Below, piece after piece: positions 1-60,506 of a stretch of 64,000 nt of DNA. Where the stretch lies: IMG/VR virus record IMGVR_UViG_3300036820_000011, positions 1-64,000 of that record; one strand, 5' to 3'. A program made the translations under genes and the position numbers. The number at the start of each line of letters is the position of its first letter. Position 1 is the first letter of the stretch. Source of the DNA: a virus. The notes under the pieces are model-generated. The model was given only the letters and a program-made list of their open reading frames with translations. It did no database searches and was not told where the DNA came from.

Positions 1-105
1 CTGGTCTACCTGGCGCTCAACCGTCTCCGCAACCAGGGAAGCGTGCGCAAATGCGCCGGTGAGGGTCCGTACACTATCTGGGCTGCCGGGCAGGACTGCC
101 CGTGA
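1..105 (+). CDS. 3' end of a truncated ORF (possible winged-helix C-terminus)
   Basis: Frame-1 ORF LVYLALNRLRNQGSVRKC... ends in TGA overlapping the next GTG start (GTGA). Confidence 0.45.
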   Translation: MVYLALNRLRNQGSVRKCAGEGPYTIWAAGQDCP

Positions 106-725
106 CCCGGCTCACCGTCACCGTGGCCATCCCCACCATCCCGGGCCGCGCCGGGTCGCTGGCCCGCGCCGTGGCCTCGGTCAAGGCCCAGCAGCGGCAG
201 CCGGACGCCCTGCTGATCGAACTGGACCGCCAGCGGACCGGCGCGGCCGAGACCCGGAACCGGCTGCTGGCCCGGGTCGGGACCGATCTGGTGGCCTGGC
301 TGGACGACGACGATTTCCTTGATCCTTCCCACCTCAAGGTCTGCGTCCGCCAGTTTGAGACCTGTCCAGGAGTGGACCTCGTCTACCCGACCCCGATGAT
401 GATGGGCGGGCTCGACCCGACGGCCACCACCTACCAGGGCCGGTTCCCGGTCAGCCCCTGGAGGCTGCGCTGGTCGGCCGAGTCAGAGTGGCATATCCGG
501 ACCCGTGGCTCCTTCGTGCCGATGACGCACGTCGTCCGGACGGAATCCGCCCGGAAGGCCGGGGGGTTCCCAGCCGGAACCGTCCTTCCGGACGGACGCT
601 ACCGGGGCGAGGACGAGGCGTACCTGATCGCCCTCCTAGATGCCGGAGCGCAGTTTGTCCATGTGGACCGGAAGACCTGGTTCTGGGTCGTGAACCCGGA
701 CAGCACCGCCGGGAAGCCTCTCTGA
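102..725 (+). CDS. Glycosyltransferase family 2 (GT-A fold)
   Basis: VAIPT start, GAAETRN, AWLDDDD (DxD), GGF and ED motifs. Confidence 0.88.
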   Translation: MTRLTVTVAIPTIPGRAGSLARAVASVKAQQRQPDALLIELDRQRTGAAETRNRLLARVGTDLVAWLDDDDFLDPSHLKVCVRQFETCPGVDLVYPTPMMMGGLDPTATTYQGRFPVSPWRLRWSAESEWHIRTRGSFVPMTHVVRTESARKAGGFPAGTVLPDGRYRGEDEAYLIALLDAGAQFVHVDRKTWFWVVNPDSTAGKPL

Positions 726-745
726 CGCGGACAGGATCAGGACAC

Positions 746-777
746 AGCCCCGGACAGGTGTCCGGGGCTTCTTATTT
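746..777 (+). terminator. Intrinsic terminator
   Basis: AGCCCCGGACA-GG-TGTCCGGGGCT hairpin followed by TCTTATTT. Confidence 0.8.
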
Positions 778-789
778 GATCGGCTCGTC

Positions 790-825
790 ACATGCTTGCA
801 TGTAAGTCACGAAGACATGTATCCT
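790..825 (+). promoter_or_regulatory. Putative leaderless promoter with overlapping palindromic operator
   Basis: TTGCAT (796)-N18-TATCCT (820), 6 nt before ATG 832; palindrome ACATGC-TT-GCATGT (790-803) covers the -35; another ACATGT at 815. Confidence 0.6.
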
Positions 826-831
826 CGGGGA

Positions 832-987
832 ATGACCGAACCCAAGAAGAGAGCATCTGCCCTCCAGGTGGTCGTCTCCCCAGAGAAGCGACGACTCCTC
901 CGGATACGCGCGGCGGAGCAGATGATCTCTGTCTCGGAGCTGATGCGCCGAATGATCGACAAGGAGCTGACAGATGCTGAAAAGTGA
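832..987 (+). CDS. Ribbon-helix-helix (CopG/ParG-like) repressor
   Basis: 51 aa; beta strand LQVVVS, helix PEKRRLLRIRAAEQ, then ISVSELMRRMID, typical of RHH. Confidence 0.7.
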   Translation: MTEPKKRASALQVVVSPEKRRLLRIRAAEQMISVSELMRRMIDKELTDAEK

Positions 988-1693
988 GGTACGTACCGTT
1001 TACCGGGCTAGCACTGCTCCGCTGTCGGCATGGGTACTGATTGCTATCGTCCTGGTCAAGACCGTCATCACTACGTACGTGGTGGGTACGGGCCTCCACC
1101 TAGGGCTCGAAGGCTATGACCTCGGCATGTCTGTTGACCTGATCGGAGCCAGTTGCATAGTGGCGCGGGCGCTGCCCCGTGATCCAGATCGCGACCGCCC
1201 GGAGCTGGACAGGTGGAGCTGGGCGATGACGGTACTCGACACAGCTCTGATCGGGTGGGCTACGTATCTCGGTACGGACATCGTCCGAGGCAGTTCTGTC
1301 GGGCTGGACAGGATCATCGTCTCTGTCAGCACGGCGCTCACTCTCGCACTCTTCGGATACAGCCGCTGGATGCTCGTTGATCGACTGGACCGGGATTCAC
1401 AGCGTCTCGCCGTAGTACGCGCTCCTGTTGTGATCCCAGTCGGGAAGCACGACCCCCTGGTCTACTTCATGCGCAATGGGACCCGAATCAAGATCGGAAC
1501 CACTACGCACCTGCACAACCGGGTGCGTCGACTCGCCCTCCGTGAAGCTGACGTCATCTTTACGATCCCGGGAGACCAGCACGTGGAACAGCAGCTGCAC
1601 CAGCAGTTCAAGCAGTACCGCGTAGGGGACACCGAATGGTTCGAGGACAAGGGGCGGTTGACCCGGTTCCTTAAGACAGGGAGAGACGACTGA
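974..1693 (+). CDS. Membrane protein with C-terminal GIY-YIG (T5orf172/MUG113-like) nuclease domain
   Basis: Several TM segments, then VYFMR..RIKIGTT..L.NRVRRL...E.QLHQQF..YR..TEWF. Confidence 0.75.
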   Translation: MLKSEVRTVYRASTAPLSAWVLIAIVLVKTVITTYVVGTGLHLGLEGYDLGMSVDLIGASCIVARALPRDPDRDRPELDRWSWAMTVLDTALIGWATYLGTDIVRGSSVGLDRIIVSVSTALTLALFGYSRWMLVDRLDRDSQRLAVVRAPVVIPVGKHDPLVYFMRNGTRIKIGTTTHLHNRVRRLALREADVIFTIPGDQHVEQQLHQQFKQYRVGDTEWFEDKGRLTRFLKTGRDD

Positions 1694-2892
1694 TGCCGTA
1701 CATCAAGTTCCGGAAGCCGAAGTTGGTCAAGAGTCTGGACGGTACGCGGGACATCCCGCTGCCCGGTCAGTACGAGACCGGCGAGAAGTGGGTCCCGCCA
1801 CAGGACAGGCGTGAGAAAGAGCTGGTTCGCCATGGCCGGGTCCTGGCTGGACTGACGGCCCTGTGTCTGGCACTGTCCGTGGTCGCCATCGGCGGCTTGT
1901 TCACCCGACTGATCCACAGTTACGGCTATGCAGCGGGAGGGGTGTTCGACGCCTTCTGGCTGTACGCCCTGTACACCGAGCATCTGGCAGACCTCAAGCA
2001 CCGGGTCCGGATCGTGGCTCAGGCAGCCGGACTGGCATTCATGGCGGCAGCGGCAACAGCCATCATTCTGGACGGCTACCGGCTGCACGTCGCTGTGCTC
2101 GGCTACCTGCTCGCGATCTTCCCACTCGGCATGAAGGGCTTCTGGTGGATGCGCTTCGGTCTGGTAAAGCCGCATCTGAGCAGGGAGCAGGAGGCTCAAT
2201 TGGAGGACGCGCTGGGAGACGTGGCTGTCCGGACTCGGGTCGCTGAGACGAAGATTCTGGAAGATGCCCGGCTGTCCCGGTTGACGGAGCTTCTGGACGC
2301 TGCGGCAGACCGGTCAGAGACCGTGACGGCGGAGCAGATCACCCGGACCGAAGCGGACGCCCTGGTCGCGCTGGACGCTGAGGTTGCGCGCCGTCAGGAG
2401 ATCGAACAGCAGGCACAGGCTGCTGCCGAAGATCTGACCGCACTCCTGGAGTCCGAGACAGACGCGCGGCGTATCGCAGAACAGCAGACCGAACGCCTCG
2501 CTGTGGTGGCGCGCAAGCAGAGCAAGAAGATCCGAAAGCTCAAGCGGCTCAGCGCGGTTCAGCCGTCGACTCAGCCAGCTCAGCTGCCGCTGAGCCCGGT
2601 TGAGCCGATAGGTCAGCATCAGCTGAGCCTGGCTCAACGCGTTCCCCCGCAGCGCGGTCCGGCTCAGCTGGCTCAGCCCCCCTACGGCCAGCACGTTGAG
2701 CCACCGGCTCAGCCGTTCGGTTTCGTGGCTCAGCCTTCGGCTCAGGTGGCTGAGCGGCTCAGCCGGGTGGCTCAGGCAGCTGAGCTGCTGGCAGCTGAGC
2801 CGGGGCTCAGCTCAGCTCAGCTGGCTGAGCGGCTCGGAGTGAGTCTCGCCTCCGCAAAGCGGTACCTGTCAGACGCACGCAAGACCATCTGA
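1693..2892 (+). CDS. Spread (SpdB/DUF2637-like) protein: about 4 TM helices, coiled coil, Q/P-rich linker, C-terminal HTH
   Basis: TM region with AGGVFDAFW, coiled coil, LSSAQLAERLGVSLASAKRYL HTH; lies upstream of traA/traB. Confidence 0.7.
   Translation: MPYIKFRKPKLVKSLDGTRDIPLPGQYETGEKWVPPQDRREKELVRHGRVLAGLTALCLALSVVAIGGLFTRLIHSYGYAAGGVFDAFWLYALYTEHLADLKHRVRIVAQAAGLAFMAAAATAIILDGYRLHVAVLGYLLAIFPLGMKGFWWMRFGLVKPHLSREQEAQLEDALGDVAVRTRVAETKILEDARLSRLTELLDAAADRSETVTAEQITRTEADALVALDAEVARRQEIEQQAQAAAEDLTALLESETDARRIAEQQTERLAVVARKQSKKIRKLKRLSAVQPSTQPAQLPLSPVEPIGQHQLSLAQRVPPQRGPAQLAQPPYGQHVEPPAQPFGFVAQPSAQVAERLSRVAQAAELLAAEPGLSSAQLAERLGVSLASAKRYLSDARKTI
2535..2837. repeat. Dense GCTCAG/CTGAGC repeat field inside the spd gene
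   Basis: About 12 GCTCAG, about 6 CTGAGC and about 8 one-mismatch copies in about 300 bp (manual count). Confidence 0.85.
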
Positions 2893-2957
2893 ACAAGACT
2901 GTCCGCCGCGCCCGCGCAGCGGGCTGACCCGATCCACCGACCAGAGAGTGAGTGATC

Positions 2958-3401
2958 ATGACCACGACCACGCCGATGAAGAAAGCGGCACCCGCCGCTG
3001 CGGGCAAGCCCCCGGCCGCTCCCTCGGGGAGCGTGTCCGCCCTGGTCAAGAGCCTGGACACGGTCCAGATCAGCGACCAGTACGAGCTGTACGAGTTCCT
3101 GGAGGCGTACCGCGCGATCGGCCACCGCATCGGCGTCGAGATGCTGATGGTGGCCCACAACGTCGAGGCCGGACTGAAGGCCCAGGCGAAGAAGGACGCG
3201 ACCTTCGGCATCGTGGGCTTCAACTCCCACATGGCGATCCGCCGGTTCAGTAAGCAGATGAAGGCCGCCGGTGAGCACATGGCCAGCGGTTCCGGTGCCG
3301 CAGCGGTCGCCTGGCGGCTGTTCCAGGCCGATTTTGACGAGGCCCTGTCCCGTAAGAAGCCCGTCGCGAAGGCGTCCAAGGGCTTCTCGATCGACATGTG
3401 A
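2958..3401 (+). CDS. TraA-like plasmid transfer protein
   Basis: About 147 aa helical protein directly upstream of traB; size and position match Streptomyces plasmid TraA. Confidence 0.6.
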   Translation: MTTTTPMKKAAPAAAGKPPAAPSGSVSALVKSLDTVQISDQYELYEFLEAYRAIGHRIGVEMLMVAHNVEAGLKAQAKKDATFGIVGFNSHMAIRRFSKQMKAAGEHMASGSGAAAVAWRLFQADFDEALSRKKPVAKASKGFSIDM

Positions 3402-3416
3402 GAGGAGGCAACCGTC

Positions 3417-5357
3417 ATGGCTGTCGACAAGATCCAGGAACACCTGGAAGAGAAGATCAAAGAGGGCATCACCCCGTGGCTGCTCTGCGCCTCGGCCATG
3501 CCGGTTGCCCTGGTCACGCACACTGCCTGGGGTGGCGACCCGGCCATGAACGACATCATGGCGGCCGGGGCCACAGCACTGACCTTCAGCACCTGGGCGA
3601 CCTGGAGCCGCAGGCACGAGCACACCCGCGTCCTGGCCACGGCCATCGCCGGAGCGGTCACCGGCTGGACCGCGCTGGCCGTGGCCACCTCCCCGCTCGA
3701 CCCGGGAATGCTCAAGGCGTGGATGTTCGGCGGGACCATCCTGTCGATCATGTGGAACGCCAGGCACTTCGCGCACAAGCCCGCCCATGAGTCCGACAAG
3801 GCGTCGGGCACCCGGGACGGCCTGATGGAGAAAGTCGGCGGGGCGTTCAGCGGGGCCCGCATCCGGCGCACGAAGACCTCCCCCGGCCGCGTCGAAGCCG
3901 AGGTCGAACTGGCTCCCGGCGAGACTGAGGCCGGGGCGCAGGGCGCGCTGGGTACCCTCGCGTCGGTGGCCGGGGTCGGCACCTCCGAGGTGACGGTCAA
4001 GGGCGACCCGAAGCGGGCCCGGAAGATCCATCTCACGTTCCAGGAGATGGAGGAACTCCGGAAGACGATCCACTGGCCGGGCGTCTCCGCCCCCGGAACC
4101 TCCGTGGCGGATTCCGCCCTGCGGTTCGGTGAGCTGCGCAACGGCACGGAACTGGGCCTGTGGGTCTGCGGAAACGACGACCGTGACAACCCGCGTCCGG
4201 CCGGGCACGTGCTCAACACCGGGGTCACCCGGTCGGGCAAGACCTCGACTGCCAAGACGCTCATTGTCGAGGGCCGGTCCCGGATCGACTTCGTCCCGGT
4301 CGTCGCCGACCCGGCCAAGTTCATGCAGGGATTCGGGCGGATCGCCGACACCCTGGCCATAGCGGCGACCACAGAGGCCGAGTGCCGCCAGCTGATCCGG
4401 AACATCCCGGACGCCGTCAAGTACCGGTCCCAGCGGCTCGGTGAGCTGGGGTTCGACCAGTGGACCCCGGCGTGCTGGACCCAGTACGACATCCCGATGG
4501 TGTTCATCGACCTGGAAGAGGCCACCGACTACGCGGACGAGAGCGAACTGGACGCGGCCATCCGCAAGGCCGGGAGCGTCGGCATCCTCATCATGGTGTC
4601 GCTGCAGACTGCGATCCACACCAACATCGAGCGCAAGACGCGCGGCCAGCTCACCAACAGCCTGTGCCACGGCTGCGTCGAAGATTTCGACGCGAAGTTC
4701 GCCCTGTCCCAGGGCACGCTGGAGGCCGGGGCCGACCCGACCAAGTGGCGGAACAATTTCCCCGGCAGCCTGTACGCCGAACTGGTGGGCACCCTGCCGG
4801 AGACCTGGGCCACTGAGGCGCGGGCCTACAGCCTGACCCCGGACGAGATGCGGGCGGAACTGGACGCCAGCCGTGGCACCTGGGCGGAACTCGACCCCGG
4901 AACCGCCCTCTACCTGGAGCGCGGCATCAGCGTTCCGGACGCGAAGATCACAGCTACGCTCCCGGAAGTGGTTCCGGACGAGCCGGAAGAGGAGGCCGTC
5001 GACATGACGAAGATCAAGAACGAGCACGGGGAGGTCAACGTCTCCTTGGCGCTGACCCCGCCGACCGGCGAGCGGTTCATCCTGCGCAGCGCCGACAACC
5101 TGGTCCAGATGAAGACCGAGCAGGCCCGGCAGCTGGTCGAGGACCGCATCGACCAGCTGGAGGACAGGGGTAGCACGGAGGTGGGGTTCAAGGATCTGGA
5201 AGACCTCTCCGAGCTGACCGGCCGTCGTCCGCGCTGGATCTATGACGAACTGCACCGTCTGGTGGCCGAGGGCCGTCTGGCCGAGGGCAACGGCCGCCCG
5301 CCGTTCACCATCCGGCAGACCGTGGTACCGATCAACAGGCACCGCCGCGAAGGGTGA
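3417..5357 (+). CDS. traB: TraB conjugative dsDNA translocase (FtsK/SpoIIIE family)
   Basis: N-terminal TMs, Walker A GVTRSGKT, DPAK, Walker B IDLEEA, GILIMVSLQ, GADP.KW....PG, C-terminal wHTH (TGRRPRWIYDELHRL). Confidence 0.88.
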   Translation: MAVDKIQEHLEEKIKEGITPWLLCASAMPVALVTHTAWGGDPAMNDIMAAGATALTFSTWATWSRRHEHTRVLATAIAGAVTGWTALAVATSPLDPGMLKAWMFGGTILSIMWNARHFAHKPAHESDKASGTRDGLMEKVGGAFSGARIRRTKTSPGRVEAEVELAPGETEAGAQGALGTLASVAGVGTSEVTVKGDPKRARKIHLTFQEMEELRKTIHWPGVSAPGTSVADSALRFGELRNGTELGLWVCGNDDRDNPRPAGHVLNTGVTRSGKTSTAKTLIVEGRSRIDFVPVVADPAKFMQGFGRIADTLAIAATTEAECRQLIRNIPDAVKYRSQRLGELGFDQWTPACWTQYDIPMVFIDLEEATDYADESELDAAIRKAGSVGILIMVSLQTAIHTNIERKTRGQLTNSLCHGCVEDFDAKFALSQGTLEAGADPTKWRNNFPGSLYAELVGTLPETWATEARAYSLTPDEMRAELDASRGTWAELDPGTALYLERGISVPDAKITATLPEVVPDEPEEEAVDMTKIKNEHGEVNVSLALTPPTGERFILRSADNLVQMKTEQARQLVEDRIDQLEDRGSTEVGFKDLEDLSELTGRRPRWIYDELHRLVAEGRLAEGNGRPPFTIRQTVVPINRHRREG

Positions 5358-5379
5358 CCAGACTGTCGGGCACGGACAT

Positions 5380-5586
5380 ACCAGGCATTGCGGTGCTTGT
5401 TCGGTCCGTGCCCGGCAGTGTGGCAATCCGTCACAGACCACCACAGTTCGGCACCGCAAACCGGAAAGATTAAATCTGGACGAACCTGGACTTTACGGTG
5501 TTTGTTCGGTCCGGATTGCGGTGCCACAAACCGGCCCTGACCTGATACATATTCTCTATTCCGTTCGGCCGTACTGTGCCGAACAG
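5380..5586. promoter_or_regulatory. Candidate clt (cis-acting locus of transfer)
   Basis: Non-coding gap right after traB with CGGTGYTTGTTCGGTCCG x2, GTTCGG/CCGAAC x5, TTGCGGTGC/GCACCGCAA x3, CAAACCGG x2. Confidence 0.5.
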
Positions 5587-5603
5587 AAAGGATCACAGTC
5601 ATC

Positions 5604-5819
5604 ATGATCCGCACCATCGCCGCAGCGGTCCACGTGACCGCCGTGGCTTCCCTGCTGCTCCTGCTCGGGTCGGCGATGTCCGACCCGTCGCCCCCGGTGC
5701 TCGGCTTCACCGCGCTGGCGCTCTGCGTCGTCGTGGCCGACCAGCTGATCACCTGGCCGCTGTGGCTGGCCACCGGCAAGGGGGCCGACTGGCACCCGGT
5801 CCGGGGTTGGTGGACGTGA
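5604..5819 (+). CDS. Small membrane protein (Spd-like)
   Basis: Two hydrophobic helices; RBS AAAGGA. Confidence 0.6.
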   Translation: MIRTIAAAVHVTAVASLLLLLGSAMSDPSPPVLGFTALALCVVVADQLITWPLWLATGKGADWHPVRGWWT

Positions 5820-5917
5820 GCGCCACCGGCGGACGCCGCCCCTCGAAGATCAGCCTGTGGATCGGGCGCATGATCATCCCGATCTGCTTCCTCGGCCTGC
5901 TGTTCACCCACCACTGA
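5816..5917 (+). CDS. Small membrane peptide
   Basis: GTGA overlap, 33 aa, one TM. Confidence 0.4.
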   Translation: MSATGGRRPSKISLWIGRMIIPICFLGLLFTHH

Positions 5918-5930
5918 GAGGAACCGATCC

Positions 5931-6413
5931 ATGACCACCGACCGCACCCCCGCCGTCCGCACCGCCGACTACAGCCGCCCGCTGGTGCAGTTCGACCGGC
6001 AGGGCTTCCCACTGGTTCCGCTTCCGGAAGCCGATCAGCTCCCCGGGAGCGGAGCCCCGGAACAGCACGTGCACATCCACCACCACTACCCGCCGGAAGT
6101 TCCGGCCCCGGAACCTTCCGCCCGGAACCCGGAAGCCGGATGGCTGCTGCTGAACCGCCTGGTTCCGTACCTGGTCGCCGCTGCCCTGATCGTCTTCCTG
6201 GTCGGCGGGGTGATCGCCATTCTGGCCTACGTCTTCACCTTTGTCCTGGCCTTCCTGGTGGTCCTGATCCACAGCCTGGTCGCGATCACCACTACCGTGA
6301 TCGGCCTGGTGGCCGTCGTCGGTGTCGTGGCCGCCCTGATCGCCCCGCACCTGTCGGGCCCGAGCACGGTCACCACCATCCACGGCAACCGTAACAAGAT
6401 CGGAGCAGAGTGA
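5931..6413 (+). CDS. SpdD-like spread membrane protein
   Basis: Pro-rich N-terminus, long hydrophobic stretch; RBS GAGAGGA. Confidence 0.6.
   Translation: MTTDRTPAVRTADYSRPLVQFDRQGFPLVPLPEADQLPGSGAPEQHVHIHHHYPPEVPAPEPSARNPEAGWLLLNRLVPYLVAAALIVFLVGGVIAILAYVFTFVLAFLVVLIHSLVAITTTVIGLVAVVGVVAALIAPHLSGPSTVTTIHGNRNKIGAE
6012..6170. repeat. CCGGAA/TTCCG repeat cluster
   Basis: About 6 CCGGAA plus several TTCCG in about 160 bp; the same word clusters in traB at about 4020-4170 and 4850-4990. Confidence 0.65.
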
Positions 6414-6604
6414 GCGGGAGTACACCACCGGTGCCGAAGACTCCGCTGGACGCGGCAAAGCTGCTGGCCGCTCTCCTCAGAGAACTGAACAGTGAAGGAT
6501 TCCTGTTCTCGGGAATTCTCAAGATACGTCGTGGGACCGCATACGCCTACGTCGAGGCAGCTGCCGACAAAACCCTCCAGTACCAGGAAGTGAGCGACAC
6601 GTGA
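6410..6604 (+). CDS. Hypothetical protein
   Basis: GTGA overlaps at both ends. Confidence 0.55.
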   Translation: MSGSTPPVPKTPLDAAKLLAALLRELNSEGFLFSGILKIRRGTAYAYVEAAADKTLQYQEVSDT

Positions 6605-7293
6605 TAGACCGCATGATCGTGATCGTCCCCACCCGGGGACGGCCCGGGAACGTCGTCCGCCAGCAGGCTGCCGTCACGGCGGCCGGTACCTCGCTGGCGG
6701 ATTTCGTCTACGTGATCGACGCCGATGACCCGAGGGCGATGGAGTACTGCCGTCTCGGCCTGTCCCGGCTCGACATCCTGGACGGGCGCGGCGGCGGCGG
6801 CATGGTCCCCGCGCTCAACTTCGCCGCCCGGCAGTACTCGGACATCTATGACGCCGTCGGGTTCATGGGCGACGACCACCTGCCGCGCACGCCCGGATGG
6901 GACCGGCGGATCATCGGGGCCCTGAACGAGGACTGGTCCGCCCCGCACGTCGTCTACGGCAATGATCTGCTGCAAGGGGCGAACCTGGCCACGGCGGCGT
7001 TCCTGGACTCCCGGACGGTCAAGGCGCTCGGCTACATGGCTCCGCCCGACCTTCATCATCTTTACGCCGACAATTTCTGGATGGAGCTGGGCCAGCGTCT
7101 CGGCGGGCTCACCTACCTGGACGATGTGGTGATCGAGCACATGCACCCGATCGCCAACAAGGCGGTGTGGGACGCCGAGTACACCCGGGTCAACACCTCG
7201 GACATGGACACGGCCGACCGCCGGGCCTGGGAGACCTACCGGGACCTCGGCGACATGGCCTCGGCCGTCGCCCGGGTCCGGAGGGCAGGATGA
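6601..7293 (+). CDS. Glycosyltransferase (GT-A)
   Basis: IVPTRGRP, VIDADD, ALN, FMGDDH..RTPGWD, HLYADN, IEHMHP. Confidence 0.85.
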   Translation: MIDRMIVIVPTRGRPGNVVRQQAAVTAAGTSLADFVYVIDADDPRAMEYCRLGLSRLDILDGRGGGGMVPALNFAARQYSDIYDAVGFMGDDHLPRTPGWDRRIIGALNEDWSAPHVVYGNDLLQGANLATAAFLDSRTVKALGYMAPPDLHHLYADNFWMELGQRLGGLTYLDDVVIEHMHPIANKAVWDAEYTRVNTSDMDTADRRAWETYRDLGDMASAVARVRRAG

Positions 7294-7889
7294 TGGACCC
7301 GGTCGTGACCGTGGTGATCCCCACCATCCCGCCCCGGGCGGAGATGCTGGAGCGGGCGCTGGCCAGTGTCCGGGGCCAGACGGTCGTCCCGGCCGCCGTG
7401 CGGGTGGCTGTCGCCACGGACACGGACCATCAGGGGGCGGCAGCCACCCGGAACCGGGGGCTGGAGCAGGTGACGACACCCTGGACCGCCTTCCTGGACG
7501 ACGACGACGTCCTGTGGCCGGAGCACCTGGCCAGACTGATCGGCTGCGCCCAGGAGACCGGAGCCGATCTGGTCTACCCCTGGTTCGACGTGCCCGGCGG
7601 ATGGGACCCCTTCCCGCAGTACTTCGGGCAGCCGTTCGATGAGCAGGCGCTGAGGACCGTGCAGAACTACATCCCGGTCACCGTGCTGGTGCGCACCTCT
7701 CTGGCCAGGGCGGTCGGCGGGTTCCAGGCGCTCAACGCCTCGACCGAGCCGGGCGCGTCCCCCTGCGAGGAGTGGGGGTGCTGGCTGGCGATGCTGGACG
7801 AGGGCGCGCAGTTCGTCCACCTGCCGGAGCGCACCTGGTCCTACACCTGGCACCGGGGCAACACGAGCGGAAGAGGAGACAGATGGTGA
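7290..7889 (+). CDS. Glycosyltransferase family 2, paralog of 102..725
   Basis: VVIPTIPPR, GAAATRNRGL, AFLDDDD, ADLVYP, GGF, EEW; ATGA overlap. Confidence 0.88.
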   Translation: MMDPVVTVVIPTIPPRAEMLERALASVRGQTVVPAAVRVAVATDTDHQGAAATRNRGLEQVTTPWTAFLDDDDVLWPEHLARLIGCAQETGADLVYPWFDVPGGWDPFPQYFGQPFDEQALRTVQNYIPVTVLVRTSLARAVGGFQALNASTEPGASPCEEWGCWLAMLDEGAQFVHLPERTWSYTWHRGNTSGRGDRW

Positions 7890-8785
7890 AAGCACTAGTC
7901 AGCGGTGATCAAGGGTTCTTGGGACGCCATTTCGCCGAGGAGCTGCACCGGCGCGGGTACGACGTGGTCGGCATCGACACCAAGCGCAGCCCGTCCCAGG
8001 ACTGCCGGTCGTGGTTCTCCTCCCCGGCCGGGAAGCGGCACCGGCAGTTCGACCTGGTGGTGCACGCGGCGGCGGTGATCGGCGGCCGGGTGAAGATCGA
8101 CGGTGATCCGCTCGCCACGGCAGCGAACCTGAGCATCGACGCCGAGATGTTCCGCTGGGCCGGGCTGACCAGGCCGGGCCGCGTGATCTACTTCTCCAGC
8201 TCCGCCGTGTACCCGGTTGACTACCAGACCGAGCACGGCGGCAGACTGCTGGCCGAGCATGCCGCCGACCCGGTGGATCACCCGGACGGGGCTGTCCGGT
8301 TCCCGGACCAGGTGTACGGCTGGAGCAAGGTCGTCGGCGAGGTGCTGGCCGACCGGCTCCGCGCCGCCGGAGTGCCGGTCACCGTGGTGCGGCCGTTCTC
8401 CGGCTACGGGGCCGACCAGGACGAGGACTACCCGTTCCCCGCGTTCGTGCGCCGGGCGCGCGAGGGCCAGGACCCGTTCGAGGTCTGGTGCGGGGAGTGC
8501 GTCCGAGATTTCGTCCACGTGGACGACATCGTGGCCCGGACCCTGGCGGTGGCGCAGGACGGCACCACCGCGCCGGTCAACATCTGCACCGGCATGGGGA
8601 CCTCGTTCAACGACCTGGCGGCGCTGGTCTGCCGCCGGGGCGACCGGCTGCGGATCAGGGCGCGGCCCGACATGCCGACCGGCGTCCGCTACCGGGTCGG
8701 CGACCCGGCCCGGCTGCGGCGGCTGACCGGCGACCTGCCGATGATCAGTCTGGAGGAGGGCGTCGCACGGGCGCTGGAGACCTGA
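7883..8785 (+). CDS. NAD-dependent nucleotide-sugar epimerase/dehydratase
   Basis: GDQGFLG Rossmann motif, FSSSAVY, YGWSK (YxxxK), RPFSGYG, RDFVHVDD. Confidence 0.92.
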   Translation: MVKALVSGDQGFLGRHFAEELHRRGYDVVGIDTKRSPSQDCRSWFSSPAGKRHRQFDLVVHAAAVIGGRVKIDGDPLATAANLSIDAEMFRWAGLTRPGRVIYFSSSAVYPVDYQTEHGGRLLAEHAADPVDHPDGAVRFPDQVYGWSKVVGEVLADRLRAAGVPVTVVRPFSGYGADQDEDYPFPAFVRRAREGQDPFEVWCGECVRDFVHVDDIVARTLAVAQDGTTAPVNICTGMGTSFNDLAALVCRRGDRLRIRARPDMPTGVRYRVGDPARLRRLTGDLPMISLEEGVARALET

Positions 8786-8981
8786 TAACGCTTGCGTCAC
8801 GATGCGGAGCCCGTCCGGACGAGAAGATCGTCCCGGCGGGCTTCGATCATGTTACGCCATAAAGAATCTTGAAAAACTTACAAAGCTGCACGTCAGAGCG
8901 TTGCCGGAAGTTTGACAGACCCTTCGGTCTTTGAGATAGTTAAATCAAGCAAGAGAGAACGACAGACCAACAAACGAAGAT
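8784..8981 (+). promoter_or_regulatory. Terminator + strong promoter module, copy 1
   Basis: Hairpin 8806-8844; AT-rich 44-bp core 8861-8904; TTGACA (8912)-N17-GATAGT (8935) with extended TGn. Confidence 0.8.
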
Positions 8982-9390
8982 CTCAGCCCGGTTGGAAGAA
9001 CCGTCGATCAGAAGTCTTGATCCTCCAGATTGTCACCGGCACTACATCCGGACATGGCGTCTGCGACGACCCCGCGAGGGAGAGCAGATGGGCACAGGGG
9101 ATGAGTATTCAAATCAAGACTTCACCGAGCGAAGCGGCTGGTATGTCCCACCGGCGCTCGAAGACGTTGCACCACCGCACAGAGCCGAACGCCTCCCCGG
9201 TCGAACCGGATTGCAGGCACGGTGACAGCACAGAGCCCCGCGTCACGATCACGGTGTACGCAGCGAAGCAACGCGGGGCACGGGACGCGCGCACCAGATG
9301 ACCGGATCAAGGGGTAGCAGTGGCTGTGATCCGTCGGTCCCCCGGCATGGTGCGCGCGTCCTCCTGCACGACCACTGACGAGAGGAACCG
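8947..9390 (+). ncRNA. Putative long structured leader RNA
   Basis: About 450 nt without a credible CDS; 11-bp helix GAAGTCTTGAT (9011)/ATCAAGACTTC (9113) encloses nested hairpins, including CCC-GCGA-GGG. Confidence 0.5.
9235..9282 (+). repeat. Repeated structured motif A, copy 1
   Basis: GCCCCGCG..hairpin..GTACGCAGCGAAGCAA-CGCGGGGC-ACG; copies at 12027 and 13367. Confidence 0.8.
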
Positions 9391-9393
9391 ACC

Positions 9394-9594
9394 ATGTCGA
9401 ACTTCCAGTACCAGCCCAGCACGATCAGCCAGCACGCTGCGTACATCGGGCGGGAGCTGGCCGCAGGGCGCTTCGTCCAGACGACTTTCGACCCGGCCGA
9501 CGGAACGATCACCGGGATCGTCGGCGTCGAGCCGCGCAGCGCCTTCGCCGACCAGGTGACCGCAGCGGCCGAGCGCCGGGCCAGTACCCGATGA
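9394..9594 (+). CDS. Hypothetical early protein
   Basis: RBS GAGAGGA and start-associated motif. Confidence 0.7.
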   Translation: MSNFQYQPSTISQHAAYIGRELAAGRFVQTTFDPADGTITGIVGVEPRSAFADQVTAAAERRASTR

Positions 9595-9797
9595 GCAGCG
9601 GCGTCGCCTGTCCTGACAAGGACCACCGGCCTTCGTGGCGGGTGGTCCAGTACCACTGCAACCAATCGGTCTTCAACGGCGGTCGTATCACCCGGTCGCC
9701 GTACTCGCTCCTGCGCTGCGGCACCTGCGACGCGGCCTGGCGCACGAAGGCCGCGTACGTGGAAGAGATCGTCAACCGAAAGGGAATCTGGTCATGA
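9591..9797 (+). CDS. Small Zn-ribbon-like protein
   Basis: C..H, CGTC; ATGA overlap. Confidence 0.65.
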   Translation: MSSGVACPDKDHRPSWRVVQYHCNQSVFNGGRITRSPYSLLRCGTCDAAWRTKAAYVEEIVNRKGIWS

Positions 9798-9988
9798 CCA
9801 TGAGCCGCAAGTACTACCGCGAGGCAGCCGAGAACCTGAACCGGCAGCTGCGCAACTCCACACCGGTCACGATCGACGCCAAGGCACAGACCATCAGGGA
9901 GACGGCAGACGACCTCGCGGGCATGTTCGCCCGGGACAACAGCGCCTTCTCCCGCAGCCAGTTCATGGACGCGGTGTACAACAAGTGA
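9794..9988 (+). CDS. Conserved small phage protein
   Basis: MSRKYY...FARDNSAFSRSQF pattern; ATGA overlap. Confidence 0.65.
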   Translation: MTMSRKYYREAAENLNRQLRNSTPVTIDAKAQTIRETADDLAGMFARDNSAFSRSQFMDAVYNK

Positions 9989-10098
9989 TCCACCCGCCTC
10001 CGAACACGCCGCGAGGGTGCCCGATCGAACCGGGCCGGAGGCACGCAGCCCGCTCCCGTCCGGGAGGCGGGTCCGCCGCACGACCGAGAGGGTACGCC

Positions 10099-11355
10099 AT
10101 GGCCATCGACGTCAACGACCGCTTCGCCGCGAACAAGATCGCTCAGCTGGACAGCGACCGCAACGCCGGAATCCGCGCCGCCGCCTCCGCCGCCGAGCGG
10201 ATCGAGCGCCTGGACGCGATGGTCGCCGAGGGCAGGGCCCGGGTGAGCGGCGACACCTACACCGTCACCGAGGGCTGGGACGCGGGCGAGACGTTCACCG
10301 TCGACCGCAACGCGACCACAGGTGAGCTGATCGAGGTCACCGCGAACACGGGCCTGGACCTGCGGGCCGACGGCAGCACCGCGCTCTACCTCGCGGGCAG
10401 GCCCGCGTGGCACTCGCTCGGCCAGCTGATCCCCGAGGGCACCGCCGACATCGAAGAGGCGTTGCGCCTGTCGGGCAACGACTTCGACGTGGCCAAGGTC
10501 CCCAGTTCGTTCGAGTTCGAGGGCAGTGTCCTCCAGCAGCCCGGCCGCTTCACCACGGTCCGCGTGCAGCCGGGCCACCCGCTGCACGGGTCGCCGCTGG
10601 GGTCCGTGGGCGCGGGCTACACCCCGAGCCAGAACCGCGACGCCTTCGGGTTCCTGCAGGAACTGATCGGCGACATGTCCGCTGTCTTCGAGTCCGCCGG
10701 GTCGATGCGCAACGGCGCGAGCGTGTTCGTCTCGCTCCGGCTGCCGCAGACCGTCACGATCGACCCCGAGGGGATCAACGACGAGATCGTGCCCTTCGTG
10801 ATGGTCCGCAACACCCACGACGGCACCGGGTCCTTCCAGGCGATGACCACCCCGTGGCGTCCTGTCTGCAGGAACACCGAGGGCTTCGCCGTGCGCGACG
10901 CCCAGCGGATCTGGAAGATCCGCCACACCGCCGGGATCACCGACCGCGTGAAGGAGGCCCGCCGGGCGCTCGGCATGTCGGTGACCTACTTCGAGGCGTT
11001 CGCAGCCGAGGAGACCGCACTGGCGCAGACGGACATCGACCTGGACGGCTTCCGAGCCCTGCTCGACACCCTGTGGGAGCCCGAGACGGACGAGACGAAG
11101 AAGGCGTCGCTGACGATCGCCGCGAAGCGGACCGAGACGCTGATGGGCATGTTCGGGACCGAGGCCGGAAACCTGGGCCGCACCGCGTACGCGGCCGAGC
11201 GGGCCGTGACCGGCTACCTGGACCACGTCGCGCCCCGCCGTCCCGGCAGGACCATGACGGAGGAGATCGCCCGCGCCTCCGCCCTGCTGCTCGACACCGA
11301 CGGCGAGACCAAGAGCAAGGCGCACCGTCAGTTGATGACGCTGACCAACCGGTAG
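10099..11355 (+). CDS. DUF932 domain protein
   Basis: PAWHSLG, YTPSQN.DAF.FL, FESAGSM.NG..VF, NTHDGTGS, RPVCRNT, IRHT. Confidence 0.88.
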   Translation: MAIDVNDRFAANKIAQLDSDRNAGIRAAASAAERIERLDAMVAEGRARVSGDTYTVTEGWDAGETFTVDRNATTGELIEVTANTGLDLRADGSTALYLAGRPAWHSLGQLIPEGTADIEEALRLSGNDFDVAKVPSSFEFEGSVLQQPGRFTTVRVQPGHPLHGSPLGSVGAGYTPSQNRDAFGFLQELIGDMSAVFESAGSMRNGASVFVSLRLPQTVTIDPEGINDEIVPFVMVRNTHDGTGSFQAMTTPWRPVCRNTEGFAVRDAQRIWKIRHTAGITDRVKEARRALGMSVTYFEAFAAEETALAQTDIDLDGFRALLDTLWEPETDETKKASLTIAAKRTETLMGMFGTEAGNLGRTAYAAERAVTGYLDHVAPRRPGRTMTEEIARASALLLDTDGETKSKAHRQLMTLTNR

Positions 11356-11440
11356 CCGTCTGAGTGCACATGATCGGGTGCGGCCCTGCGGGGCCGTCCC
11401 CGTTCACGGGTGCTCAGCCCGACCACTGACCGAGGAGGGA

Positions 11441-11626
11441 ATGACCGTGTCCGAGATCACGATCACCAACCGGAACACCAAGGAAGAGATCACGCTGCAC
11501 GGCCTGAGCCGGTACGAGGTGCAGGTGCTCGCCGACCTCGTGACCCCGGTCAACGCCGACTGGAAGTACTTCTCAGACGGCGCTGTGCCGCCGACCAACA
11601 AGGCCGTCCGGACACGCGGCAACTGA
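11441..11626 (+). CDS. Hypothetical protein
   Basis: RBS GAGGAGG. Confidence 0.6.
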   Translation: MTVSEITITNRNTKEEITLHGLSRYEVQVLADLVTPVNADWKYFSDGAVPPTNKAVRTRGN

Positions 11627-11686
11627 CCCGCTGTCAGTGTCCTCTGACACCGTGGGACCGACGATCACTCGACCAAGGAGCAGACC

Positions 11687-12019
11687 ATGATCATCACTAG
11701 CTACGGCAGTTGGAACAACTACACCCACTACAACACGTGCCCGGGTGCGGACATCCTCGACGTCATCAACGGCGGCGACTCCGAGTGGCAGCAGCGCATG
11801 GAGGACACCGGCGCGCTGAACGCGATCGAGACCGAGTGGTGCGCCGCCATCCAGGCCGCTCTGCCCGAGGGTGTCACGCTGACCGGGGACGAGTTCATCG
11901 GACCGCACCACGCCGACCCGGCCTACAGCGACGAGATCGCCGAGTTCGATATCAGGGCCGCCATCGAGGACATCGACCTTCAGGCGATCATCGAGCGCCA
12001 CGACGTCGACAACACCTAA
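11687..12019 (+). CDS. Highly acidic hypothetical protein
   Basis: RBS AAGGAG; D/E-rich, no Lys. Confidence 0.75.
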   Translation: MIITSYGSWNNYTHYNTCPGADILDVINGGDSEWQQRMEDTGALNAIETEWCAAIQAALPEGVTLTGDEFIGPHHADPAYSDEIAEFDIRAAIEDIDLQAIIERHDVDNT

Positions 12020-12026
12020 TCGGTCA

Positions 12027-12075
12027 GCCCCTCGCCGTGCACCCCGGCGTACGCAGCGAAGCAGCGCGGGGCACG
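12027..12075 (+). repeat. Repeated structured motif A, copy 2
   Basis: GCCCCTCG-CCG.TGCACCC.CGG-CGTACGCAGCGAAGCAG-CGCGGGGC-ACG. Confidence 0.8.
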
Positions 12076-12107
12076 TACCGACCGACCACTGATCGAGAGG
12101 AACCGCC

Positions 12108-12404
12108 ATGGCCAGTATCCAGCAGCTCACCGCAGCGGCAGCGAAGGCGGGGTTCGTGCGCACCGAGTGCGCCCACCTCGACTCCCCGCACCACCTGGTG
12201 TTCGACTACCCGGAGCCGCTCAGCGAGGACCGTATGCGTCCGCCGTTCTTCCGGGTGCACACCGACACCGCCCGGGTGCCGCACGCGACCTACATCCACG
12301 GGGGCGGCTCCGACGATGACGTGCCCGTCGAGCAGCGCACCACGCTGGTGCACGCGATCACGTGGATGGCGGAGATCGCCAGGCAGTACCCGAAGGAGGG
12401 CTGA
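12108..12404 (+). CDS. Hypothetical protein
   Basis: Start-associated motif and RBS. Confidence 0.7.
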   Translation: MASIQQLTAAAAKAGFVRTECAHLDSPHHLVFDYPEPLSEDRMRPPFFRVHTDTARVPHATYIHGGGSDDDVPVEQRTTLVHAITWMAEIARQYPKEG

Positions 12405-12405
12405 G

Positions 12406-12630
12406 ATGCCCTACTGCGCGGACGACATCGTGATCGCCACGGTGCCCGGGGCGGGCATCCGCCGCGTATGGCTGTGGAAGCCCGCCCGGGGCGGCTGGCT
12501 GGTCAAGGATGTCAACGGCACCCCGTACTGGGTGGACACCGGCGGGATCGAGAGCGTGGCCGCCTACCGGCTGCGCACGGGGTCCGGGCTGCTGCCCGGC
12601 GAGAGGAGCACGCATGCAGACGATCACTGA
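12406..12630 (+). CDS. Hypothetical protein
   Basis: RBS GGAGG; high-GC3 ORF. Confidence 0.55.
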   Translation: MPYCADDIVIATVPGAGIRRVWLWKPARGGWLVKDVNGTPYWVDTGGIESVAAYRLRTGSGLLPGERSTHADDH

Positions 12631-13066
12631 CCAGCTGGTCGCCTCCGGGGCGAAGGGCCTGACCCTGCACTCCCCCTGGGGTGACCTGATCGCACTCAAG
12701 GCCAAGCAGGTCGAGAACCGCAGCTGGCCGACCGACTACCGGGGGCTCGTGCTGATCCACTCCGGACTGCGGCACGACGGCTGGGCCGAGCGGGACGAGC
12801 ACGTCCGCACAGCTCTGCCCGAGGACTACGACCCGGCCGGGAACGCGGGCACGGTCGTCGCGGTGGCCCGGCTCGCCGACTGCCACCGCGACGCCGGGTG
12901 CTGCCGCCCGTGGGGCGAGGCCGGTCTGTGGCACTGGGTGTTCGCCGACGTGCACCGGCTCACCACCCCGATCCCGCAGCGCGGGGCGCAGGGGCTCTGG
13001 AGCGTGCCCGTCTCGCTGCTGCTCGGCGTCGTCACCGGGGTCGAGCGGGCCGCCAGCGGTCGATAA
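12614..13066 (+). CDS. ASCH domain protein
   Basis: GLTLHSPW..LI...K.VENRSWPT.YRG.VLIHSG ... RGAQGLW. Confidence 0.88.
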   Translation: MQTITDQLVASGAKGLTLHSPWGDLIALKAKQVENRSWPTDYRGLVLIHSGLRHDGWAERDEHVRTALPEDYDPAGNAGTVVAVARLADCHRDAGCCRPWGEAGLWHWVFADVHRLTTPIPQRGAQGLWSVPVSLLLGVVTGVERAASGR

Positions 13067-13260
13067 CGCTTCCGTCACAGTCGGGGACCGCCGGAGCGGA
13101 TGTGATCACTCCGGCGGTCTTCGATCTTCTGATCGCCGAAAGAATCTTGAAAAACTTACAAATCTGCACGTCAGAGCGTTGCAGCAAAGTTGACGAGGTC
13201 TCGGTTCTTTGAGATTATTAAATCAGAGCGAAGAACACAGACCAACAACTGAACAAGATC
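13062..13260 (+). promoter_or_regulatory. Terminator + strong promoter module, copy 2
   Basis: Hairpin 13084-13122; core 13139-13182 matches copy 1 at 43/44; TTGACG (13190)-N17-GATTAT (13213). Confidence 0.8.
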
Positions 13261-13445
13261 GCCGGTGATAGGGAACCGGACATCCCAGAGATAAGGCCCC
13301 CGGAAAGGCTAAGGCTGGGAGGGACGGGAGAGTCGGCGAACCCGATAGGCGTCCATGAGTGAACAAGCCCCGCATACGTGATCACGACGTACGCAGCGAA
13401 CGCAACGCGGGGCACGTAATGATCGACACCACTCGCACGGACGAA
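13225..13445 (+). ncRNA. Putative structured leader RNA 2, including motif A copy 3 (13367-13416)
   Basis: Consecutive hairpins CCGGT/ACCGG, TCCCAG/CTGGGA, GGACG/CGTCC; shares CCGG..CCGGACAT and ATGAGTnnnCAA with leader 1. Confidence 0.5.
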
Positions 13446-13456
13446 GGAGTCTTCTG

Positions 13457-13717
13457 ATGACCAAGAACTTTGAACTTGTCACCATAAGTGAGACCCAGGC
13501 CCGTGTTCTCCGGAGTGCCAGTTGGTACAGCTACGTATGGTTCGCCTACAACGTCCGCAGCAGCTCGTACATGACTTTCCACAAGTTGTATGCGCTGGGA
13601 CTTATCGAGAGCCCTTTCGCAGGTTCCGCCTTGACGGCCAAGGGAGCGGCGCTCCGTGATCACCTGGTCAAATTCCCGGCCGCCGGAGGATCGGTCATCC
13701 TCAACTGGGAGGACTGA
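13457..13717 (+). CDS. Hypothetical protein (lower GC, possible winged-helix)
   Basis: RBS AAGGAG; KLYALGLIE...LTAKG pattern. Confidence 0.6.
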   Translation: MTKNFELVTISETQARVLRSASWYSYVWFAYNVRSSSYMTFHKLYALGLIESPFAGSALTAKGAALRDHLVKFPAAGGSVILNWED

Positions 13718-13807
13718 CTAGCACTGACCCACCAGCCCGGCCGGAGTTCACCGCTCCGACCGGGCACTGTGACCGCAACGCACGACCACCCGAGTGAGGA
13801 ATACACC

Positions 13808-60451: not shown

Positions 60452-60506
60452 GCTTGCCTCCTGGGCCGGATCGGCAGCAGCCGCCGCCGTGAGGGATGCT
60501 ACCCGC

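Follow-up and report, generated by a model that had tools for sequence, protein, structure and literature searches.

A traA-traB gene pair of Streptomyces plasmid type, with candidate DNA-binding repeats, in a clade of tailed-phage genomes

Results

A candidate DNA-transfer module on a closed phage genome

We analyzed the first 64,000 nucleotides (positions 1-64,000, hereafter the window) of the 82,852-bp IMG/VR record IMGVR_UViG_3300036820_000011, a viral contig from soil labelled as linear and 91% complete. A preliminary description made from the sequence alone had proposed that positions 790-6604 carry a domesticated conjugation module of the TraB/Spd type found in Streptomyces. The reading we prefer, to which we assign a probability of roughly 0.55, is that the traA-traB pair in this region still functions in DNA transfer, as its counterparts on Streptomyces plasmids do, and has been passed on vertically; that it moves phage genomes without virions is wholly our inference. 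As part of the same explanation, and with the same degree of confidence, the module appears to belong to the core gene set of a clade of siphophage-like elements, about 78-99 kb in size, whose members infect Streptomyces or are resident in it. The features on which the argument turns are the following.

1693-2892, + strand: SpdB-like membrane protein of 399 aa, with N-terminal membrane segments, a coiled low-complexity linker and a C-terminal helix-turn-helix (HTH)
2547-2830, no strand: array of 16 copies of GCT(C/G)AGC in the 3' part of the SpdB-like gene, a candidate clt-like or sps-like binding array
2952-3401, + strand: traA-like gene, 149 aa; match to NCBIfam plasmid_TraA with E = 1.3e-7 and 31.8 bits (cut-off 80)
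3417-5357, + strand: traB, coding for an FtsK-like double-stranded DNA translocase of 646 aa, with a membrane N-terminal part, a P-loop motor and a C-terminal HTH-like block
5358-5603, no strand: non-coding gap of 246 bp with repeats (five copies of GTTCGG, two 21-nt direct repeats, and inverted repeats), in a clt-like position

TraB aligns end to end with the NCBIfam profile plasmid_TraB (NF041214), its residues 10-625 covering positions 2-625 of the 639 in the profile (E = 2.3e-109); because this full-length match scores 366.7 bits, less than 800, we regard the protein as a divergent homologue and not as an equivalog. Residues G269, G274 and K275 of the Walker A motif and E368 of the Walker B motif are invariant in all 26 aligned TraB homologues, so the full-length TraB with Walker motifs that had been described is indeed there. 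The top matches of the TraB family profile among solved structures are FtsK (E = 9e-4), and the protein also matches phrog_24831, a phage and prophage family without an assigned function (E = 6.6e-72). Its first 110 or so residues are hydrophobic, with one segment (residues 72-90) that passes the strict threshold of a crude Kyte-Doolittle scan, and by the same scan the TraB proteins of relatives have 1-4 membrane segments. The C-terminal HTH-like block, with the pattern GR.R.W.Y.EL..L, is conserved among relatives and gives weak matches (E = 0.5-0.9) to solved winged-HTH chains. The adjacent gene can be called traA on the strength of its plasmid_TraA match, though this falls short of the cut-off; a BLASTP comparison of the window protein with TraA of pSN22 gave no match. 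By tblastn, traA lies directly 5' of traB in 17 of 35 related loci.

The record is a genuine, closed tailed-phage genome. Comparison of the contig ends showed that bases 1-163 recur at 82690-82852 with 98.2% identity (the second copy is outside the window), and therefore the contig closes on itself, giving an effectively complete genome of about 82.7 kb. The apparently complete virion operon that had been noted on the same contig is borne out by genes for the tape measure, head-tail adaptor, major capsid protein, portal, TerL and endolysin, and a giant MuF/protease-like protein is also encoded among the virion genes. The replication set consists of a primase-helicase, a family-A DNA polymerase, a helicase-nuclease and a Sak4-like annealing protein. 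A ParB-like gene adjoins a gene for an ABC-ATPase/acetyltransferase-like protein, with no partition ATPase beside it. The absence of an integrase had been remarked on for the surroundings of the module; profile searches extend it to the whole genome, in which we found no tyrosine integrase, no serine recombinase or resolvase, and no ParA-type ATPase (PF13614). As to plasmid maintenance, no ParA is encoded, in searches that were not aimed at rep genes of plasmid type. The genome thus combines virion and transfer genes on one replicon, as phage-plasmids of the pZL12/pFP4 type do, and lacks the maintenance functions that were looked for.

TraB relatives form a clade with its own capsid type

Neither megablast with positions 790-6604 nor tblastn with TraB found a match among 50,697 GenBank phage records, so there is no cultured, deposited phage with a close TraB. 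Plasmid records with a TraB number 51 (45 of them from Streptomyces), mostly with 24-31% identity to the window protein, the exception being pS1D4-14.2 (38.6%). About 90 protein clusters hold TraB homologues with 36-55% identity, many of them encoded on contigs of 60-93 kb. By scanning IMG/VR with an alignment of 26 TraB homologues, we located 31 TraB loci there, where a scan with the single protein had given no match, in addition to four contigs of Streptomyces isolate genomes (53.7 and 92-96 kb), two of which are the same records as IMG/VR entries.

The traA-traB neighborhood is common to 32 distinct related elements, and the order of its parts is kept: membrane protein, traA, traB, gap, small membrane proteins. 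The protein encoded directly 5' of traA-traB in these relatives has 250-520 aa and membrane segments, and the small membrane proteins follow on the 3' side. Of the 30 TraB-positive virus records open to searching, 22 have the capsid family of the window, and among these are all 21 records with a completeness of 90% or more. Terminal repeats were found in 10 of the 30 records. Pairwise identities of TraB covary with those of the capsid protein (Mantel r = 0.91, with 0 of 2000 permutations as high), and TraB diverges faster, with a mean identity of 47% versus 62% for the capsid.

In a quick tree of TraB, a single branch with support of 100 in the Shimodaira-Hasegawa-like approximate likelihood ratio test (SH-aLRT) separates 33 sequences of the phage clade from seven plasmid sequences, which include those of the plasmid-phages pFP4 and pCQ4. 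Similarly, one branch of the capsid tree (SH-aLRT 99) separates 24 TraB-positive from six TraB-negative elements, so that the presence of TraB maps as one change. The ratio of nonsynonymous to synonymous substitution rates (dN/dS) of TraB is 0.31-0.45 in 10 of 10 pairs of relatives, which indicates purifying and not relaxed selection; for the capsid gene it is 0.13-0.37 in four pairs.

The capsid relatives without TraB, of 23 searched, are one record of 82.9 kb (G031) and five terminally repeated genomes of 48-67 kb. G031 has the polymerase, helicase-nuclease, Sak4, epimerase and virion genes, and is without traA, traB and the glycosyltransferase genes GT2a and GTb that lie next to the module in the window. 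ParA is present in 5, and a tyrosine integrase in 9, of the 21 TraB-positive relatives with a completeness of 90% or more. The carriers belong mainly to a subgroup of 89-99 kb that includes the contigs from Streptomyces isolates, and the others, like the window genome, have neither gene; TraB has therefore been kept in both plasmid-prophage-like and virulent-looking members of the clade.

The replication genes show mosaicism of their own. Those for the polymerase, helicase-nuclease and Sak4, at 74805-81316 of the genome, are shared with the TraB-less G031 (41-50% identity) and missing from G001, the relative that is closest by capsid and TraB. G001 has 57 of 105 crude gene calls in common with the window genome.

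Assembly, flanks and exchange of parts

A module of this kind could be a passenger, that is, the product of a recent insertion of a plasmid or an actinomycete integrative and conjugative element (AICE), of a chimeric assembly, or of decay to a functionless remnant. Two observations would fit such a history: GC content at third codon positions (GC3) is lower in 817-2892 (0.66-0.75) than in traA-traB (0.90-0.91), and the cassette 770-2888 is replaced in a near relative, as detailed below. Against it stand, besides the synteny in 32 relatives, the single origin and the co-divergence with the capsid, the intact reading frames and a dN/dS below 0.5 in 10 of 10 pairs. We found no direct repeat of at least 16 nt flanking the module, in agreement with the lack of att-like flanks noted before, and the flank matches of 14-15 nt that do occur are explained by the paralogy of the flanking genes GT2a and GTc. 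With neither an integrase nor such repeats, the region lacks the makeup of an AICE (integrase, rep and TraB within att repeats). As to the assembly, one Logan contig of run X1, from which the record probably derives, spans positions 1-9000 with one difference, and contigs of a second, independent soil study (runs X2 and X3) traverse the same junctions. Together, synteny, single origin, co-divergence, selection, the absence of flanking repeats and the assembly data lead us to reject chimeric assembly, recent AICE insertion and decay to a remnant. The passenger explanation is thus largely refuted, and we consider it very improbable; the word "domesticated", as applied to the module in the preliminary description, is apt.

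The phage of runs X2 and X3 also shows which parts of the region are exchanged. Its flanks are 95-97% identical to the window, with 37 differences in 1-769 and 94 in 5602-8890. Between them, positions 770-2888 (the genes for a ribbon-helix-helix (RHH) protein, a T5orf172-domain protein and the SpdB-like protein with its array) are exchanged for 1070 other bases, the gap region 5276-5601 is exchanged for 304 other bases, and traA-traB reaches 90% identity only in patches. The recognition parts have thus been exchanged, or are diverging much faster than their surroundings.

Repeat arrays on both sides of traA-traB

The 399-aa protein encoded upstream of traA has membrane segments at residues 50-68 and 107-125 (by hydropathy) and Pfam HTH matches on residues 355-398. 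In architecture and context it resembles SpdB, with a polytopic N-terminus, a charged linker, a C-terminal HTH, adjacency to traA-traB and an embedded array of short repeats, and the same features are seen in o666 of pJV1, the DUF2637 gene of pFP4 and o22747 of pCQ4. The Atlas clusters nearest to it carry SpdB_N, HTH_SpdB_C or DUF2637, which we take as a lead only. By BLASTP with single linkage it falls in a cluster of 33 members, and three of 10 positional equivalents scanned 5' of traA in relatives pass the DUF2637 threshold.

Within this gene, 284 bp (2547-2830) hold 16 of the 34 matches to GCTCAGC in the window, a total that was attained in 0 of 100 shuffles. The GCT(C/G)AGC copies lie in all three reading frames, where they code for AQL or AQP, AER or AEL, xLS and SSA, and the array is therefore a feature of the DNA and not a peptide repeat. 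It is the densest cluster of any 7-mer in the whole genome. Related loci show a similar pattern: for 29 of 33 distinct loci, each examined over 14-22 kb, the 7-mer cluster with the highest density is situated 0.5-2.4 kb 5' of traB, and two more loci have theirs in the gap that follows traB. The upstream arrays of relatives lie within or just ahead of the membrane-protein gene and consist of 5-22 copies of motifs that are specific to lineages–for example, GGGACA, GGACAG and GAGACG, among others.

Plasmid genes at the corresponding position beside traA-traB also hold arrays, with 11 of 13 (pJV1), 11 of 13 (pFP4) and 9 of 14 (pCQ4) motif copies inside the gene. These plasmid genes end in HTH-like sequences, and they are located upstream of traA-traB in pFP4 and pCQ4 and downstream in pJV1. 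As a separate observation, the plasmid arrays (at 1093-1741 of locus L138 from pJV1, 4562-4931 of L139 from pFP4, 23255-23620 of L144 from pCQ4 and 108-324 of L141 from pWTY27) sit in the 3' half of the membrane-protein gene, which is annotated as DUF2637 in pFP4 and pWTY27, and in pJV1 and pCQ4 their copies span several reading frames. The passages on Streptomyces transfer systems that we consulted contain no mention of arrays embedded in membrane-protein genes. A passage in PMC4170104 describes SpdA2 as binding palindromes inside its own gene, and the array in the SpdB-like gene would likewise be a plausible target for the HTH of the protein that the gene encodes.

The second candidate site is the gap that follows traB. 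With the gap of L007, the nearest relative, it shares 72% identity, whereas the adjoining TraB proteins share only 55%. Relatives have gaps of 120-280 bp with repeats that include CTGACA (8-9 copies) and GTGATCA (8 copies), and their best gap repeats are equalled in only 2-8 of about 580 control windows. According to passages in PMC3583192, the clt locus of pWTY27 comprises 16 bp inside tra and 159 bp downstream, has TGACACC and CCCGCCC repeats and is footprinted by Tra, and pJV1 has nine CCGCACASS repeats. In both plasmids the clt repeats are located at or just after the traB stop codon, the same place as the gap in the window, and relatives have gap repeats similar to the footprinted pWTY27 clt both in where they lie and in motif (TGACACC, CCCGCCC). 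TraB is reported to read direct 8-bp repeats in clt regions (PMC4447253). The C-terminal helix of TraB takes different forms in relatives with gaps of the TGATCA type and in relatives with gaps of the TGACA type; the former are all in one clade, however, and this covariation therefore counts as one event. No Rfam family matches positions 1-14000. We think it more likely that the gap is the site of TraB (clt) than that the upstream array is. The clt-like gap proposed earlier thus stands as a non-coding, repeat-bearing interval at the clt position of pJV1 and pWTY27, with the qualification that a much stronger repeat array sits 5' of traA.

Other genes in and beside the module

The remaining features of the region are listed here.

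102-725, + strand: GT2a, family-2 glycosyltransferase on the left flank (Pfam PF00535, E = 5.4e-8; phrog_14775, E = 2.1e-22)
746-769, + strand: terminator-like hairpin after GT2a, a 10-bp stem followed by a T-rich tail
786-810, no strand: operator-like palindrome ACATGCTTGCATGT (790-803) with GTCAC on its flanks, just 5' of the RHH gene, as read from the sequence
817-987, + strand: small RHH-like protein of 56 aa, with sub-threshold matches to five Pfam families of the RHH clan
974-1693, + strand: membrane-anchored T5orf172/MUG113-domain protein of 239 aa, from Pfam matches and two hydrophobic segments
5604-5819, + strand: small protein of 71 aa with two membrane segments (hydropathy)
5931-6413, + strand: conserved membrane protein of 160 aa, with a hydrophobic block at about residues 80-135
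6410-6604, + strand: soluble protein of 64 aa, with GTGA overlaps at both ends and no membrane segment
6601-7293, + strand: GTb, glycosyltransferase (phrog_14945, E = 8.7e-52)
7290-7889, + strand: GTc, family-2 glycosyltransferase and GT2a paralogue on the right flank, with an ATGA overlap with GTb
7883-8785, + strand: NAD-dependent sugar epimerase (phrog_540, E = 8e-45)

The end of the hairpin at 769 is also the left edge of the swapped cassette, and the X2 and X3 contigs diverge from the window exactly at this base. Downstream of it, the RHH-like reading frame has its best matches to NikA-like (E = 6.5e-5), RHH_10 (E = 1.4e-4) and RHH_1 (E = 3.6e-3), all below threshold, and it runs into the start of the gene at 974-1693. 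The 56-aa protein is probably the regulator of the module, and ACATGCTTGCATGT is a candidate operator for its gene. The RHH repressor with operator that had been described is thus present as a small RHH-like gene and a palindrome, with sub-threshold matches and in a different frame: the open reading frame at 792-980, which we considered for this role, is in the wrong frame and has no match in Pfam, PHROG or NCBIfam.

The preliminary description had two Spd-like membrane proteins. The 399-aa protein keeps a SpdB-like label by architecture and position, and the 239-aa protein is not Spd-like, as it ends in a domain (residues 168-224) that matches MUG113 (E = 6.2e-8) and T5orf172 (E = 2e-6) in Pfam. 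With tblastn homologues in only two of 35 related loci, the latter is probably an accessory or mobile gene. Its GC3 (0.71) is below that of its neighbors, and the joining of a T5orf172/MUG113 (GIY-YIG-related) domain to an N-terminal membrane region is an unusual combination.

Downstream of traB, two of the three small genes thought to encode membrane proteins do so (71 aa and 160 aa), and the third, of 64 aa, has no membrane segment by hydropathy and no match in Pfam, PHROG or NCBIfam. Proteins of 64-95 aa with one or two membrane segments occupy the position of the 71-aa protein in many relatives. The 160-aa protein likewise has no match in these three databases, and by BLASTP it belongs to a family of 30 members in 30 loci, including the window. 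The GTGA overlaps at 6410 and 6601, by which the module is joined to the glycosyltransferase genes, are present as described.

By tblastn, a homologue of GT2a is found 2.5-4.4 kb 5' of traB in 31 of 35 related loci, and one of GTb in 27 of 35. Family-2 glycosyltransferase paralogues do flank the module on both sides, as had been stated, the pair being GT2a (102-725) and GTc (7290-7889), with 39.4% identity over 203 aa (E = 1.4e-34); GTb, considered as a paralogue of GT2a, has no detectable similarity to it (E = 0.73). The transfer module thus lies within a block of three glycosyltransferase genes and an epimerase gene (102-8785), to which it is translationally coupled. The epimerase gene is the sole gene of this block retained in the TraB-less G031, which is also without the glycosyltransferases. 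Envelope glycosylation and DNA transfer may act jointly.

Elsewhere in the window we noticed a WhiB-like regulator (22071-22523, E = 3.8e-9), a GH16-like glycoside hydrolase adjoining TerL (53791-54846, E = 1.6e-6) and a phospholipase D-like (PLD-like) domain protein (59891-60982, E = 2.6e-10).

Discussion

TraB and clt form the double-stranded DNA conjugation system of Streptomyces, and Spd proteins complex with TraB for intramycelial spread, as stated in passages of PMC4447253. To the gene identities, conservation, selection and repeat arrays, which are established directly, the following model adds the binding partners, the transfer and the benefit by inference. An operon controlled by the RHH-like protein would make the SpdB-like HTH membrane protein, TraA, the TraB motor and two small membrane proteins. 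TraB hexamers would sit in the membrane at hyphal contacts or cross-walls, and the C-terminal HTH-like block of TraB would recognize short repeats on phage DNA, most likely those of the gap after traB. The GCT(C/G)AGC array would be held by the HTH of the SpdB-like protein or by TraB. TraB could then pump the double-stranded phage genome into a neighboring compartment or hypha. For relatives that have ParA and integrase and are found in Streptomyces isolates as separate contigs or as a "plasmid", the process would amount to conjugative transfer of a plasmid-prophage, as with pZL12; for the window genome, with its own DNA polymerase and neither integrase nor ParA, it would be virion-independent spread of an infecting genome through the mycelium. 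That a Streptomyces isolate appears to keep pS1D4-14.2, judging from its deposited sequence, as a separate replicon of 98.8 kb with virion genes lends support to this model.

Several points weigh against it. TraB scores under its NCBIfam equivalog cut-off of 800 bits, and it reaches 11 bits against Pfam FtsK_SpoIIIE (cut-off 24). The Spd assignment is one of architecture and position, and sequence profile tests of it are negative: a hidden Markov model (HMM) built from the equivalents in relatives fails to find the 399-aa protein, hhalign gives a probability of about 1%, the family HMMs match no plasmid Spd proteins, and a genome-wide search for DUF2637 finds no match with the limit relaxed to E <= 10. 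The GTTCGG cluster in the window gap is marginal, as 140 of 2220 control windows equal it (p ~0.06). The link between HTH helix and gap motif comes from one clade and is confounded by phylogeny, and there are two candidate cis-acting sites, the gap and the upstream array. Streptomyces is a presumptive host for this particular contig, the TraB proteins of relatives in isolates being only 36-39% identical to that of the window. Finally, the benefit to a lytic phage is not obvious, as the donor compartment would be lysing anyway.

The same genes might instead serve vertical inheritance, with TraB and the arrays moving or retaining carrier-state genomes across sporulation septa or vegetative septa and so bringing them into spores and every compartment. 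TraB is FtsK-like, the genome combines dense candidate DNA-binding arrays with a lack of ParA and integrase, and the SpdA2/sps system of pIJ101 is described in passages of PMC4170104 as affecting segregational stability and not transfer. We nevertheless think this explanation unlikely, because all characterized members of the TraB family act in intermycelial transfer or spreading, according to passages in PMC4447253, and because a carrier state of the window phage is unsupported. Alternatively, the module might act on DNA other than that of the phage, through exclusion of or competition with plasmids or AICEs or through mobilization of host DNA, or it might remodel the envelope together with the glycosyltransferases, as in superinfection exclusion. 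Its position inside, and translational coupling to, the block of three glycosyltransferase genes and an epimerase gene is in keeping with this, as is the joint absence of the module and the glycosyltransferases from the TraB-less G031. However, lineage-specific arrays and a conserved gap after traB, on the phage's own DNA, are what would be expected of a cis-acting site, and no exclusion-type family was matched, so we regard such roles as quite unlikely.

A bolder step, which we take tentatively and at less than even odds, is to suppose that a virulent phage uses a plasmid-derived "movement" apparatus of TraB, SpdB-like protein and cis-acting arrays to drive its replicating double-stranded genome through cross-walls and from one touching hypha to another, without virions or receptors. 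In that case, the SpdB-like cassette, TraB and gap, swapped or fast-diverging between near-identical phages, could be read as the trace of an arms race or as a code of specificity. The hyphae of Streptomyces are divided into compartments, which raises the question of how phages spread within them. Should TraB carry phage genomes between compartments or hyphae, transmission would gain a second route, independent of receptors. Conjugation and infection would then be harder to tell apart, with consequences for phage resistance, plaque biology and gene flow in soil bacteria that produce antibiotics. What was an odd single contig becomes one of the 33 members of a delimited clade that has TraB among its core genes. 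Some of these elements are carried by cultured strains such as Streptomyces sp. S1D4-14, S. africanus NRRL B-24243 and Streptomyces sp. NRRL S-455, and two concrete DNA sites and two predicted DNA-binding domains are identified as candidates. Arrays in the SpdB-type genes of phages and plasmids alike may be a general, overlooked part of the DNA-transfer apparatus of Streptomyces.

Comparison with known systems

Because pZL12, pFP4 and pCQ4 are already in print, the concept of a conjugative plasmid-phage is not new. Like the element we propose, pZL12/phiZL12 is both a tailed phage and a conjugative replicon of Streptomyces (PMC3583192, PMC4487206), a likeness known here from citing passages, without comparison of the pZL12 sequence. 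From those passages, pZL12 differs in being a plasmid with ParA and ParB, whereas the window genome has no ParA or integrase and has its own family-A DNA polymerase; replication of pZL12 has been characterized, as the title of Zhong et al. (2010, J Bacteriol 192:3747) indicates. Passages in PMC4170104 and PMC6950372 cite pFP4 as a published Streptomyces plasmid-phage (Chen et al. 2012, Plasmid 68:170). The pFP4 sequence (NC_017833) shares with the window a membrane-protein gene 5' of traB with an embedded repeat array, annotated as DUF2637, and differs in its size (40.9 kb), in its TraB (28.6% identical, and on the plasmid side of the tree) and in having a GntR regulator, not RHH. The third element, pCQ4, carries GntR-traA-traB beside terminase, portal and capsid genes, and from this gene content we take it to be of the pZL12 type. 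It differs from the window genome in its GntR regulator, in a different and much shorter capsid gene, and in a TraB that groups with plasmid TraBs.

The closest named relative is pS1D4-14.2 (NZ_CP041606.1), deposited as a linear plasmid of 98.8 kb from the soil isolate Streptomyces sp. S1D4-14. It carries portal, capsid, tape measure, terminase, ParA, ParB, integrase and primase genes. Its capsid protein is 59-62%, its TraB 38.6% and its virion genes 50-63% identical to those of the window genome, and the gene order is the same (family-2 glycosyltransferase, membrane protein, traA, traB, glycosyltransferase, epimerase), whereas its ParA, tyrosine integrase and P4-type primase are all missing from the window genome. 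The module genes of pS1D4-14.2 are all annotated as hypothetical. In a literature search that covered main texts, we found no paper describing TraB in this phage clade. Recent papers on Streptomyces phages list FtsK/SpoIIIE-like genes with no role assigned, and a passage in PMC9513070 mentions four plasmid-borne TraBs as "data not shown". Supplements that may bear on novelty are the tables of PMC9513070 (for TraB of pS1D4-14.2) and Dataset S1 of Pfeifer and Rocha 2024 (for lists of phage-plasmids).

With the traR-traA-traB-spd modules of the plasmids pSN22, pJV1 and pWTY27, the window shares the traA-traB pair, a TraB that aligns over its full length (27-29% identity), the location of clt repeats at or just after the traB stop codon, and repeat arrays in membrane-protein genes at the same position. 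The plasmids differ in having a divergently transcribed GntR-type regulator and rep genes, and the window TraA and TraB score under the equivalog cut-offs. As a side observation, the conjugative plasmid pWTY27 (NC_013667.2, 14.3 kb) has a gene annotated as "phage major capsid protein" two genes 3' of traB (10642-12102 of the record; 4295-4446 of locus L141). The septal translocases FtsK and SpoIIIE have in common with the window TraB a P-loop motor, FtsK being its best solved-structure match, and the domain order of membrane anchor, motor and C-terminal DNA-recognition module; the window TraB differs in being encoded by a phage, in having no match to the gamma domain and in its 11-bit Pfam score.

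Set against these systems, what is new is first of all a large, separate and mostly uncultured clade with its own capsid type and with TraB as a core gene. Its RHH regulator in place of GntR is new too, as are arrays that are conserved in position and lineage-specific in motif. Lastly, some members of the clade, including the window genome, have no recognizable plasmid or lysogeny function: they are without integrase and ParA, and have their own DNA polymerase.

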